In this document: in pieces, positions 6,229 through 36,590 of the stretch | Numbering within the stretch: position 1 is the first letter of the stretch | Layout of the letters: every line of letters starts with the position of its first letter | DNA from: Eledone cirrhosa | Taxonomy: Eukaryota | Direction of reading: 5' to 3' | Assembly: GCA_964016885.1 (NCBI GenBank) | Contig: OZ024742.1 | Span: 353,152,001-353,216,000 of the forward strand | Length of the DNA: 64,000 nucleotides | Made by a program: the position numbers and the translations under genes | The notes under the pieces: generated by a model | The model's input: only the letters and a program-made list of their open reading frames with translations | The model's database searches: none | What the model was told of the DNA's origin: nothing

Positions 6229-6714
6229 TATTAAAAACAATGAATACAAACAAAGAACAAGTTCCTTATATTAAAACATTTACCATTTTACGATCGTTTC
6301 TATGATATATGTGTGTGTTGGTATGTATATCATATAGATCTATGTAAAAATATTACAAACTATCAGAGGAAATATACATACCTTCACATATATAGGCTGT
6401 TTTCAGAAATGAAGACTGCATATACATGTGAAGCTATGTATATTTCCTCTGATAGTTTGTAATATGTTTACATAGATCTATATGATATACATACCAACAC
6501 ACATATATATCCTAGAAACGATCGTAAAATGATAAATGTTTTAATATAAGGAACTTGTTCTTTGTTTTTATTCATTGTTTTTATTAATTTCTCTTGACTC
6601 TGTCTTTCTATGATTTTCATCGAAAATTTTTGAATGCATCTTCTCTTTTCATGATATTTGGATTACAGTGAGTTCTTCATACGTATTTGAAAATAACGTA
6701 TATGTTGGTAGATT
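6229..6714 (+). mobile_element. Non-coding PLE terminal-repeat fold-back (arms ~6231-6394 and ~6421-6588) with tail
   Basis: Clear inverted repeat between (TA)n and (TC)n. Carries an HHR and the RCTC/GAGY hairpin (6597-6676). Confidence 0.75.
6284..6411 (-). ncRNA. Hammerhead with ~100-nt stem II (core mutated to CTGAAAA)
   Basis: cattt-CTGAAAA-[atatatgtg..ggtatgtatat..atatacatacc..cacatatat]-GAAA-cgatcg-TA-aaatg. Stem I is perfect and stem III is the palindrome ACGATCGT. Confidence 0.7.
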
Positions 6715-8979
6715 TCTCTCTCTCTCTCTCTCTCTCTCTCTCTCTCTCTCTCTCTCTCTCTCTCTCTCTCTCTCTCTCTCTCTCTCTCTCTCTCTATCTA
6801 TATATATATATATATATATATATATATATATATATATATATATATATATATGTATATATATATATATATATATATATATATATATATATATATATATATA
6901 TATATATATATATTTATAATGATATATATATATATGTGTGTGTATATATGGACGTAGTACCTCTCTCTTTATATATATATATATATGTGTGTGTGTTTAT
7001 GTGTGTGTGTGTTTACGTATAATGAATATAGACATTTCGAATCACACTCTATTTGTACTGTCGCTAATTTCTACTAACTCACCGACCCTTCCCTATATAG
7101 AACTATGGTACCATCAATAGTGTTTATGTACGGAATGTCTATAGCATGATATTTCCTTGTATCGTAGACTAGGTAAGATTGCACTACTGTGGGAAAACTT
7201 ACAGAAAACTTTGTATATTATTCATTTATTTTTGAACATCAATGTCAGCGTTAATGTTTCTGTTACCTAACAGATTTAAGTTCAACGTTGAGTATTGGGA
7301 CTAGATATTTTGTATCGTATTAAACACAACTACATTATACAAGAGTTCAAATACCTTCTCGCACATGAAATTGAATTCAGGCTGATATTCTTTTCTATAC
7401 ACGAATACATTTCAAGAATTCCATGAATGATAGCGTGACATGGCTAAAGTAATAACTATATACGGTAAACTCTCCTTGAATATTTCGGCATTGCTTTTTA
7501 CATTTAACTTCTTATATTGATATACTGTTGTGAATTTAATACAGTAATCACAATCGTTTAGAGTTTCGCAATCAAAATGGCTAAAATATTCCTACCTTCA
7601 TGATTTCATTTCTACTGTCGACAACATTCTTCTCACTAACTATACAGGAAGCTTCGCATGTGATACAATATATATTTTTTCTTTACTTCATGGGTTTCTG
7701 ATTAGGTCTTCAATTTGTCATTTTGATTATATATAATTTCCTTTAGAATTGACCTTCATAGAAACTGCAGGTTTTTCGTTATAGCATACTATATACACAC
7801 AGAGAGATTGCATTATATAACAGAGCTTAAATGTTATTCAGTTGTTAAACGTTTGAGGATCTCCTGCATATTGCATTTACGAGAGCCTACACTATAAATA
7901 ATGAAATTCATATAGAAATATGTTTGACGAAATAAAACGGTGGAAATATTGCAAAAAGTAATTGCAGTAAACTTGAGTTATTTCCGCTCGTATGCAAAAT
8001 ATTATTTCTATAACTTTCACAAGCTTATATACTTACACGTTACACACATGCACAAACGAACATACACACATGCCCAGGCAGAGCTACTCAGATATACGCT
8101 CTCAAGTACAGCAGCATAAATCTAAACTATAATAAAGTAAGGGTGCGGGACTGCATATGGTTATACTGTTTTATCCCATTAGTAAAATAAGTTGGATTAC
8201 TTTGAATAAATAATGAATGAATATTACATAATTTATCTATTAAGTTTGTAGTTGTTGATTAAATATATTTTATTATTTATTTAAATATTTACTTATTGCT
8301 AGTATATATAAACATGTAAAAATAGGAATATTGCATATCATGTAAGTAACCAATTTCTCACGAGAACATATTCATTGTATAGAGATGGTAGTTATATTCA
8401 ATAGAGAGAATATAAGAAGATATGTATTAATTGCAAGTGAAATATTATATAAAACATATTGGTCTCATATATAAACGATTAAGATATTATGACTTACAAA
8501 TAAATGAGTGTTTTAATGCAACACATCAATTTCCTTTTATCTGTATACTCCTATGGCTGGCCATTCGATTAGTGGGATATCTGTCAACAAAGGGTGTCTA
8601 CATGTTTACTATCTAAGATCGCACTTGTAGAATCAATGATAATAATTCCAGGATTATTCTTGTATATCTGAACTGATGTATTATGTTTTAAAATCCTCCG
8701 ATGTATTTCAGCCTTAGGCACTCACTCTCACATCACAAATCACCACTGCCCTTTCTTCCTCGTCGTTGCACATGTCTACACACGCATGTGCAGATGGCAG
8801 TTAAATACATATTATAGTGAAAGTGCAGATAATATTTTACTTACCTGCATATAAATATAAATATATATATATATATATATATATATATATATATATATAT
8901 ATATATATATATATATATATATATATATATATATATATATATATATATATATATATATATATATATATATATATATATG

Positions 8980-9200
8980 TATACACTTAAGGTAAACTTC
9001 GTTGCAATTCGATTCGAGCACTCAACATACTTTTTCCACATAAGAGTGACGGTGTATATTTAGAATAAGAAAATGCAAAGTAGTTTCAGATTTTAAAGTT
9101 CTTTAAACATAATGATATGATACATATTTCAATGACCCGAGTGACCACCCGCTCGGTGTACCCAGTGCCGAAACATCATCAGATAGCTTTTAACATAATA
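8980..9200 (-). mobile_element. Solo PLE terminal repeat: HHR at 9187-9114 and hairpin at 9048-9016, ending in (TA)n
   Basis: gctat-CTGATGA-...-GAAA-tatgta-TC-atatc, followed ~70 nt later by cactc..tt-gagtg-ctc. Confidence 0.65.
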
Positions 9201-9946
9201 AATATATTCCAAGAATAGAATTTCATTTACCACGCTACTGTCCCGCCAAAAAATGTGTTCTGTGAGGAAACATATCTAGCACCACTGTTGCTGTTACGTT
9301 ATGACTACACCACTCTCTCTATACACAAGAGTTCATTCTCCAGTCTCTTTCTTAGAGGGAGAAGAAGAAAACTTACCTCTTAATTTTAAATCTTTAATTT
9401 TTAGTTTTTAATACTTATTAAAACTTTTTTAAATGCAGTACGCAAAATGTCATGAGATGAAACAACTCTTCCAGCGCATCTCCCTTACGATGATCTGGGG
9501 AAACGCTTTCTCCATTCTGTCTACCGGGGCTGTGGGGAGGCCATTACGCGAGACCCTACTTGCTCACCATACGGAGAGATGGGGGAGGGCCAGAGAGAAG
9601 GAGGCGATGGCAGTGGATGTTTGGATGTTGTTTTATGGTTACAATTGCATAGTTAACAAAATAATTTCCTATTTATTTCATACAGTAAGTGATTTCTCGT
9701 AACGTTTTTTTTTGTCATATATAATACATCTAAACCGGTTATACATTATATACATTACACTAACAACCGGTTATACATTATATACATTACACTTACAACC
9801 GGTAATACTTTATATATATTACAAAACTATTCTGCATAAGAATTGTCCCTCTCATTTTCTTCAATATATCACTTTCACGAATCAAAGAAAGTAAAAAAAG
9901 AAAGACAGAGTGTAAAATGTATTTTGCGTGGTATTTCCAACTTCAC

Positions 9947-10122
9947 TTTCTCTCTCTCTCTCTCTCTCTCTCTCTCTCTCTCTCTCTCTCTCTCTCTCTC
10001 TCTCTCTCTCTTTCTCTCTCTCTCTCTCTCTCTCTCTCTCTCTCTCTCTCTCTCTCTCTCTCTCCCTTTCTCTCCATCTCTCTTTCTCCATCTCTCTCTC
10101 TCTCTCTTACTCTCTCTCTCTC
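9947..10122. repeat. (TC)n microsatellite
   Basis: Read directly. Confidence 0.98.
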
Positions 10123-34560: not shown

Positions 34561-34666
34561 GTTATCTCTACGGTGAAATCATAGAAATAAACATATGCTA
34601 AAACAAAACAAATAAATATAAATATGTATATATATATATATATATATATATATATATATATACAAT

Positions 34667-34710
34667 GATATTAAATAAATGGAAACTATATTTATAAAAC
34701 CATATTTATT
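34667..34710 (-). repeat. Family B terminal-repeat stub
   Basis: gatattaaataaatggaaactatatttataaaaccatatttatt matches 10788-10831. Confidence 0.75.
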
Positions 34711-35149
34711 GTATGATATACATTTCAACGCTACCAAAGATTTTTGTTTCAAGGGTACTAGGAATTTGTTGAATTACCAACAAATTGAATATTATCCCTT
34801 ATGCTTATATATATATACATATATATATATATATATATATATATATATATATATATATATATATATATATATATATATATATACAGTATATATATATATA
34901 TATATATATATATATATATATATATATATATATATATATATATATATATATATATATATATACAGTATATATATATATATATATATATATATATATATAT
35001 ATATATATACAGTATATATTTAGCTGACACGGAGAAGAGAAATCTTTGAAATAAATGTATGTTCGAACACCAGAGAGAGAGAGTAGTATGAGGTAGTCAT
35101 AACAACAATAGTAGCAGTAAAACGCGTATCAAAACAATATATATATATA

Positions 35150-36590
35150 TTAAAATACAAATATTAATAAAATAGCTGTTCTTTTGATCAATTACATTTT
35201 ATTATACATATTTCGGATGTACAACAGTACGTCCTCATCAGACAAAATATAATGTTACATGACATACACTTGTTCAATAACATGCCGGAACATTGATACA
35301 CATAACATTATTTTATTAACTTTGATCAATACCATTATTTCTTTATTTCTTTATTTCTCTATCTTCCTATCTATGTTTTAAAGTTTAGTTTAATACCCCA
35401 CCCATACATCTTTACGGAACTTATATATAACTGTGAATTTTTAATGCGTTTTTGATCTCTTATTTATAGTATAATATAATATAGTATATTATAATAGGTA
35501 TGTAATTATATTTTTATATATTTTTAAATATACCTACTGCATTTTAAAATCTAAAATTTAAAAAGGAAATGTGAATTTTTGGTACGTTTTTGATCTCTTA
35601 TATATAATATAATGTATTATAATATGTATGTAATTATATATTATATTTTATATATTTTTAAATATACCTACCGCATTTCTATATCCATGATTCAAATATA
35701 GAGAAAATATCCAAACTAAAAATTATTATAGACATTATTGTGACTCTGAATTATCCATGCACTTATTATTGTTTTTCTTATATATATGTATGTAAATGTA
35801 ACACATTGAACTCTATTTTATAAAATTATAACCGTTATCATTTACCTAAAGTATACTGCACCACTAATACCTAATATATATCTATATATACCTCCCTATA
35901 TCTTCCTATACATCATTTTTAGTTAACTTCTAAATGTGTTGATTATGTATACTCTGAACTAAGAATAATTAATGCATTTACACCCTGTTATATATTTAAC
36001 ATGCCTCAATTTATCATTTTATTTTTATATTCGTCGTTATTATTTACCTAAAATATACTGGCTCATTAATATATATCTATATACATAATCGTTATTTAAA
36101 TATTTCTAACAATAAGTACTTCAAAAGCTTTACATACCTAATATGTTGGTATCTTTGTTAAAGTTATGATTGATGAGATGTTTTCCTAGATAAATTGTCG
36201 TAACATATATTTTAAAATCTCTATAACTGTTACATTAAACAACGTTTTTCTTACTCACACATTCTCTATTGAATTTGTTACGTCTTCGCATATTCTCATA
36301 ATTAGGGTATAAATGTAAAATGTTCTCTTAGGTTAATCACTACCTTGATTACATCTTAACCATTTAATATCTCAGGTATGGCATGTATCATTATATTTTG
36401 TCTGATGAGGACGTACTGTTGTACATCCGAAATATGTATAATAAAATGTAATTGATCAAAGGAACATATATTTTATTAATATTTGTATTTTAATATTAAT
36501 TACTCCGGAAAATTATTACGGAGAGTGCTTCCAATCTACTGTAAAACTCATTCTTTGACATACTCATTGAATATTGTTTAACACTGTAAT
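35150..36590 (+). mobile_element. Non-coding PLE-type element (family E): inverted repeat 35150-35268 / 36376-36496, AT-rich body, tail
   Basis: Both arms carry an HHR. No ORF of 60 aa or more. Internal direct repeat 35433-35544 / 35571-35678. (TA)n flanks. Confidence 0.8.
36394..36448 (+). ncRNA. Type I hammerhead, intact core (twin at 35195-35249, -)
   Basis: tattttgt-CTGATGA-ggacgtac-tgtt-gtacatcc-GAAA-tatgta-TA-ataaaatg. Confidence 0.9.

Follow-up and report, generated by a model that had tools for sequence, protein, structure and literature searches.

Copies of Hydra-type Penelope-like elements in Eledone cirrhosa end a few nucleotides before either of two 5' untranslated hairpins

In a 64,000-nt stretch of the 3.0-Gb genome of Eledone cirrhosa (GCA_964016885.1, contig OZ024742.1, positions 353,152,001 to 353,216,000, forward strand; hereafter, the window), many inverted repeats are embedded in (TA)n, and the seven fold-backs listed in a preliminary description of this DNA each pair an arm that carries an extra tail with an arm that lacks it, raising the question of what determines where the two arms stop. 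Judging from sequence features, we assign these fold-backs to the Hydra clade of Penelope-like elements (PLEs). Our reading, which we consider probable, is that copies of such elements end ∼3 to 9 nt before either of two hairpins in the 5' untranslated region (UTR), that these hairpins bind the reverse transcriptase (RT) and so set two internal starts on one RNA, and that the tail spans the interval from one site to the other.

All seven arm pairs of the preliminary description are present in the window, and its tail-less ends are accurate to a few bases except for the F1 point. Counted from the first stem base, and given as a range between the last shared base and the point where the flanking TA register begins, the distance to the stem was 5 to 8 nt for the pair 10787/14421 (stem 14428, mutated in this copy), 3 to 6 nt for 19455/14736 (stem 14731 on the minus strand, placed at 14732 previously), 5 to 7 nt for 27357/30006 (stem 30012), 2 to 7 nt for 30125/30579 (stem 30582), 4 to 7 nt for 30836/31118 (stem 31123), and 5 to 9 nt for 35150/36496 (stem 36502). 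For 6229/6586, of which both window copies are mutated, the arm pair stands, but the end point 6586 is 3 to 6 nt short of the family end, which lies 4 to 7 nt before stem 6597 in 21/23 F1 ends, i.e., at about 6589 to 6592. Because the fold-backs represent five families only (F1, F2 three times, F3a, F3b, and F4), the seven cases are not independent.

The stem belongs to a bulged hairpin whose lower stem, RCTC/GAGY, has 4 bp and is followed by NCT. Its 3' bulge measures 2 nt and begins with U (U-N), its upper stem mostly has 2 to 7 bp, and its loop ranges from 2 to about 100 nt. This motif was counted 100 times in 800 kb of unselected tiles versus 38 to 43 times in shuffles, and the minimum-energy fold of the F2 UTR sense strand contains both bulged hairpins (z, −2.5). 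An Rfam search gave no match at the gathering score and low-complexity microRNA hits only. The motif recurs in many further families, including a short element, NA1, in which no open reading frame (ORF) was seen. NA1 is abundant, obeys the same hairpin and end rule (window 19510-19690; L209:4700-4950), and is likely a non-autonomous passenger of the Hydra-clade proteins.

Ends were then counted in a genome sample of ∼2 Mb, with distances of 0 to 20 nt before the stem covered and references preceded by TA dropped. Results revealed that the flanking repeat began 6 to 9 nt before a stem in 315/375 ends, i.e., in 213/258 tail-less ends (site 1) and 102/117 tailed ends (site 2). This narrow scatter bears out the earlier proposal that tail-less arms stop a few nucleotides before a conserved hairpin. 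Arm-only searches gave two end positions per family (a bimodal distribution). Moreover, incidentally found copies anchored on their ribozyme either stopped at one of the two sites or ran on past them in 10/10 cases for F2b, 15/17 for F2a, 9/9 for F3b, 10/11 for F4, 18/19 for F1, and 38/44 for NA1. The F3a and F7 rows of this count are distorted by the reference copy used, the deviating F3a rows being mostly site-1 ends mis-scored by a spacer-variant reference and those of F7 mostly TA runs aligned to the TA-rich loop.

The tailed end is also internal and is not the RNA's 3' end, because full-length copies continue past it into a second hairpin and the ORF. This second hairpin comes right after the tailed end and about 20 to 35 nt before the ATG; for instance, full-length F2 (F2b) copies run past the tail into it 19 nt before the ATG, and it directly follows the tailed end in full-length F4, F6, F7, F3b, and F3a as well. 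For F1, a stem start was predicted ≤10 nt from the tail end, which gave 139 pattern matches versus 0 for a reversed control, and all 6 stretches fetched held the second hairpin (long loop) plus the ORF start. The order within a unit is ribozyme, site 1, hairpin 1, site 2, hairpin 2, and ATG, with a spacing of 67 to 137 nt between the hairpins across families. The full-length copies do not support the earlier proposal that one strand, here the tailed arm, is primed at the RNA 3' end, and the tailed ends keep the same 6- to 9-nt distance as the tail-less ones. A third end position was seen once, in an F3a copy that ends inside the long loop of hairpin 2 (L164, minus strand, ∼1304-1240).

Two other landmarks, the ribozyme and the nearest TA run, were weighed as determinants of the end. 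The distance from GAAA to hairpin 1 varies from 48 to 81 nt across families, whereas the end-to-stem distance is constant. A natural spacer series is provided by an F3a subfamily with 3 to 6 AAT units between ribozyme and hairpin, in which the first 100 of 3281 matches were covered, with 12 linked pairs among them. The end moved with the hairpin in 11/12 pairs. In 9 pairs the tail-less arm had one AAT unit less than its partner, with an end-to-stem distance of 5 to 8 nt; in 2 both arms had the same number of units (3 to 5 nt), and in 1 the tail-less arm was the longer. None of the 12 linked pairs ended after the first AAT unit, the ribozyme-fixed position, but two unpaired rows of unassigned subfamily do. 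A fixed distance from the ribozyme is rejected on the 48- to 81-nt variation and on the lack of ribozyme-fixed ends among the pairs of the series, a natural counterpart of the spacer insertions suggested in the preliminary description, which had tied the ends to the hairpin and not to the hammerhead. The nearest TA run is rejected as well, since each region holds 3 to 13 alternating TA patches and only 1 or 2 are used as ends. A conserved TA patch lies 4 to 10 nt before each stem, and microhomology with the target, also anticipated earlier, is usual (2 to 5 nt in 308/375 ends).

The sequence between end and flank showed further features. Runs of (CA)n or (CT)n separate the tailed end from the (TA)n flank in 8/26 F1 and 4/16 F3a site-2 ends and occur at 1/258 site-1 ends (window 6715-6790 and 14630-14670; L070 and L074). 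They match the last template dinucleotide and could come from RT stutter, as in telomerase, or from later slippage. The empty-site search yielded one usable case, an NA1 fold-back in an F3b 3' UTR (L109:455-645) with flanks of (TA)35 and (TA)40, for which about a dozen other copies have short TA patches only at the empty site, one with about six units; in this one case the (TA)n flank may have been added at or after insertion.

Tailed and tail-less arms were combined in a regular manner. Forty long F2 insertions were examined, including 31 with both ends resolved, 7 without a partner in the stretch (3 tailed and 4 tail-less), and 2 unresolved. Every one of the 31 resolved pairs consisted of one tailed and one tail-less arm, with the long arm being the tailed one in 23, the tail-less one in 7, and both in 1; in L289 and L294 the tail-less partner ends somewhat early. 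Automatic typing in seven families gave 111/117 mixed pairs, and the 6 exceptions were 3 mistyped mixed pairs, 1 row that is not an end, 1 pair nested in a larger palindrome, and 1 tailed/tailed pair. Simple copying of one arm from the other is ruled out because the long arm in L280 is wholly without a tail while its partner has one. The arms of a pair are nearer each other than typical copies are (F2, 1.3 versus 4.7 differences). At L278:643-9258, two near-full-length F2 copies lie head to head, one tailed and one tail-less.

The assignment of these families to the Hydra clade rests on several features of their sequence. The 737-amino-acid ORF of L282 contains, as read by eye, an RT with YRDD followed by a C-terminal YVG...STS region of the GIY-YIG endonuclease type; 153 homologues were found, and searches of Pfam and PDB sequences gave no significant match. 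SDKT (DKG modified to DKT) and RWR occur in F2, RWK in F3a and F3b, and a CxCX5C linker in F2, F1, and an F3a fragment. Hammerhead core motifs and stems, with cleavage predicted, lie on the ORF strand in the F2, F3a, and F4 arms, with a long stem II in F1; the families are inserted in (TA)n, and their N-termini resemble Hydra-1_Ajap by eye. A C-terminal endonuclease, DKT, RW(K/R), CxCX5C, a canonical hammerhead, and (TA)n targets are the traits given for the clade in the main text of PMC8557442, which likewise has tandem and inverted copies with an optional tail. Unlike the clade, described there as "generally <3 kb," the F2 unit measures 3768 nt, and the tails, at the hairpin spacing given above, are longer than the 30 to 40 bp cited there.

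Relatives in other organisms share the motif. A metagenome scan with a 3-sequence alignment yielded no loci, and a second scan yielded 78. The motif was located ≤230 nt upstream of the ORF start in 31/45 distinct loci with a 5' end (47/78 before reduction), versus 5/900 shuffles and 0/45 ORF interiors, and two copies were present in 11 of the 45. It occurred on the ORF strand in 100 raw types versus 6. When only the outer frame was demanded (counting with pairing demanded being circular), and with kinship among types uncontrolled, upper pair 1 was Watson-Crick in 54/66 types (C-G, 41; T-A, 13) and upper pair 2 in 38/63, with all four pair types represented. The hairpin spacing was 43 to 79 nt, the TA dinucleotide peaked at −6 from the stem (40/80 types), and alternating 4-mers occupied −10 to −4 in 41/80 types versus 0 to 10 in windows further upstream. 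Among 44 end rows, 18 were dropped for a TA-preceded reference; same-contig 3' copies ended 0 to 8 nt before a stem in 13/14, mostly not in (TA)n, the remaining row being an artefact, and the 12 cross-contig rows lay at 2 to 4 nt (5) or 12 to 14 nt (7), at homopolymer or subfamily differences. Furthermore, the motif was seen by eye in the published consensi Hydra-2_Amil, Hydra-1_Ajap, Hydra-2_Ajap, and Hydra-1_Crog, from coral, sea cucumber, and copepod (PMC8557442, File S7). Hydra-1_Ajap (sea cucumber) has two hairpins before the ATG, and Hydra-1_Crog has a second hairpin that shows a compensatory change and begins 6 nt into the consensus; by eye, the motif is imperfect in Hydra-1_Obim and not clear in Hydra-1_Amil. 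The main text of PMC8557442 gives no description of the hairpin, although it is visible in these consensi.

An optional tail on one inverted repeat (PMC3846280, PMC8557442) and two internal starts (PMC11167929) are already known. According to PMC11167929, RT starts in vitro at both genomic ends of the lizard Poseidon element PAc (Anolis), RNA 3' of the starts is required, both target strands are cut and extended, and ribozyme cleavage is not required in vitro. The internal initiation mentioned in the preliminary description for a lizard Poseidon element is real, and both starts are internal. As in PAc, both genomic ends here are internal to the transcript unit and bound the tail; however, the PAc starts are in an AC-rich stem-loop inside the ORF (PMC11167929), whereas those proposed here are 5' UTR sites, each followed by a bulged hairpin of its own.

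Beyond the observed anatomy, distance rule, TA patch, and pairing, the mechanism that we propose contains priming steps drawn by analogy with PAc (PMC11167929). Each hairpin would bind the RT and present the UA patch 4 to 10 nt upstream to a nicked target end, with local microhomology picking the exact start base. The endonuclease would nick both strands of an AT-rich target, and the two 3'-OH ends would anneal over 2 to 5 nt, one at the patch preceding hairpin 1 and the other at the patch preceding hairpin 2. Both complementary DNAs (cDNAs) would then extend in the direction of the RNA 5' end, passing through the ribozyme into the previous unit. With the ribozyme cut site upstream of both ends, the template would be an uncleaved tandem or circular RNA. 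On one RNA, site 1 would be primed before site 2 or simultaneously with it, since copying from site 1 spares hairpin 2. The reverse order would cover hairpin 1 and leave a single, non-inverted tailed copy. Priming of one RNA at site 1 and then site 2 would account both for the mixed pairs and for either kind of single copy. Strand displacement would be needed for the second cDNA, and the cDNA 3' ends would join and copy each other to give the head-to-head fold-back. We see about equal chances for and against a broader version, a clade-wide duplicated RNA start signal in which each hairpin holds the RT active site ∼6 nt from a UA landing patch and priming of a single RNA proceeds in order from the two sides of the broken target, first at hairpin 1 and next at hairpin 2, a telomerase-like, structure-set start that would explain PLE tails and head-to-head fold-backs. 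The RT may also stutter on the patch, itself adding part of the flanking microsatellite.

In hepadnavirus epsilon and the template stems of telomerase RNA, a bulged or short RT-bound stem fixes the copying start, with epsilon being protein-primed at its bulge and the boundary stems of telomerase limiting where copying stops; their resemblance to the proposed role of the hairpin is one of description. In L1 twin priming, reportedly put forward by Ostertag and Kazazian in 2001, two target 3' ends are said to prime one RNA and so give an inversion, with one primer at the poly(A) end, a variable second site, and segments that do not overlap. Our proposal has in common with it two target 3' ends, one RNA, and an inversion; unlike in L1, both sites are fixed and internal, and both arms copy the same sequence. 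As for the single RNA of L1-type twin priming, pairing here was mixed in 31/31 cases, and the own partner was strictly closest in 18/63.

Several observations weigh against hairpin-set priming on one RNA. Sixty of the 375 ends fall outside 6 to 9 nt, an older F3a-like subfamily has ends 0 to 3 nt from the stem, and microhomology is absent in 50/375 ends. Folding z-scores are modest (−2.5, −0.9, and −0.7 for three UTRs), the latter two being no better than shuffles, and the polarity of G-T versus A-C pairs among the relatives (12 versus 9; p 0.66) does not support action as sense RNA. The partner comparison falls short of showing a single RNA, with the own partner tied in 23 and not closest in 22 of the 63 cases, and two tailed/tailed pairs exist (L301 and L377, one of them picked by hand). 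The PAc start is not homologous to the cut DNA (PMC11167929), whereas here a conserved TA patch accompanies the usual 2- to 5-nt microhomology. Finally, a Neptune-like family (3122-5987 and 19690-22229), whose clade was assigned from its CxxC linker, shows mixed tailed/tail-less pairs and equally sharp paired ends, plus a third minor end, but no RCTC/GAGY hairpin follows these ends. Because of this control, two-site ends look general among PLEs, and the RCTC/GAGY hairpin looks clade-specific.

The main rival, which we regard as unlikely, is that both cDNAs begin at other positions and that a branched or palindromic intermediate is then cut back by the endonuclease to a few bases short of each hairpin, which would be recognised as single-stranded DNA or RNA, with the shared TA as the cut motif. 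Trimming predicts the distance rule and the pairing equally; Craig 2021 attributes the tail, as a suggestion, to endonuclease resolution (PMC8557442), older work cited in PMC11167929 has the tail needed for endonuclease recognition, and the 12 versus 9 polarity leaves the strands undistinguished. However, both ends are RT start sites in the sole PLE tested in vitro (PMC11167929), the loop variation of 2 to 100 nt argues against a double-stranded DNA site, and the distance shifts within 6 to 9 nt with the local TA patch, as for a primer. Somewhat less likely again is hairpin-set priming on two RNAs held by an asymmetric protein dimer, one subunit per hairpin. The lizard protein is predicted to be a dimer (PMC11167929), rare tailed/tailed pairs exist, and partner identity (18/63 strictly closest) is not decisive, but an extra asymmetry would be needed for 31/31 mixed pairs, and linked pairs mostly share spacer length. 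It is very improbable that the fold-backs are made by self-priming (snap-back), possibly on an antisense template, as has been proposed for rotifer Penelope elements (PMC3846280) and would fit small palindromes and overlaps at some inversion junctions; the motif lies on the ORF strand (100 versus 6 raw types), and plain snap-back, not combined with endonuclease trimming, is rejected since either arm can be longer (23 versus 7) and the tailed arm of L280 holds sequence missing from the other arm. The least credible is the original version, in which priming occurs at the hairpin for the tail-less arm and at the RNA 3' end for the tailed one. It would be valid for an RNA cut or terminated immediately before hairpin 2, but the sequence runs on into hairpin 2 and the ORF, the tailed ends keep the distance and TA patch, and the ribozyme cut site is upstream of both ends.

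In the literature searched, which had subscription papers, Repbase notes, and picture-only supplement figures outside its reach, no description was found of the duplicated hairpin, the shared distance rule, the conserved TA patch, or the quantified pairing rule. PMC8557442 names the origin of PLE tails and inverted copies as an open problem, and the question has so far been answered only partly, in vitro, for one element; the present result adds a conserved cis-signal that is short and present twice, together with a measured rule for its distance to the ends, a spacer experiment provided by nature, and a rule for arm pairing. Telomerase has its closest relatives in the PLE RTs, so an internal start set by structure is relevant to the evolution of template use, and a portable start signal could aid RT-based insertion tools and PLE annotation.

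The features of the window are collected in Table 1, including an F7 copy and an eighth fold-back (3122-5987) that were absent from the preliminary description.

Table 1. Hairpin-bearing elements and related features in the window
Feature	Positions	Strand	Remarks
Neptune-like PLE fold-back (control)	3122-5987		Tail 5944-5987; sharp ends; RCTC/GAGY hairpin absent
F1 fold-back	6225-6715		Minus arm tail-less, ending at ∼6222-6225; plus arm tailed, with the tail reaching ∼6715 and followed by (CT)n and (TA)n
F1 hairpin 1, long-loop form	6597-6676	+	Loop ∼65 nt
F2b inverted tail-less arm	10787-10924	-	Hammerhead core 10844-10885
Hydra-type RT-endonuclease ORF, 5'-truncated, broken	10914-12990	+	DKT, CxCX5C; intact relative 737 amino acids (L282)
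F2b tailed end	14283-14509	+	Hammerhead 14322-14363; hairpin 1 14428-14450, stem mutated; tail to ∼14509
F3a tailed end	14670-14850	-	Hairpin 1 at 14731-14708
F3a tail-less end	19345-19456	+	Hammerhead 19371-19408
Short element NA1	19560-19690	+	Same hairpin 19613-19639; no ORF in copies viewed
F7 tailed copy	27183-27343	+	Same hairpin 27255-27305
F3b inverted tail-less arm	27357-28440	-	
F3b tailed arm	28917-30082	+	Hairpin 1 30012-30035; tail to ∼30082
F2a fold-back	30125-30666		Minus arm tail-less with hammerhead 30184-30224; plus arm tailed with hammerhead 30478-30518 and hairpin 30582-30604
F2c fold-back	30836-31207		Tail-less minus arm; tailed plus arm, hairpin 31123-31145
F4 inverted tail-less arm	35150-35267	-	Hammerhead 35211-35241
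F4 tailed end	36376-36590	+	Hammerhead 36402-36432; hairpin 36502-36529; tail to ∼36590

Elsewhere in the window, 72-nt inverted repeats bracket a GC-rich 200-nt insert at 10365-10710, flanked by a short TA run, and a degenerate F2-like fragment at 34655-34760 has a tail-less end and a deleted centre. Broken ORF pieces on the minus strand at 31504-34435 resemble a Helitron-type Rep/helicase. Broken copies of non-long-terminal-repeat retrotransposons occupy 37885-41360, 41775-45414, 47002-49277, 53552-57335, and 59278-63704, one being interrupted by another.

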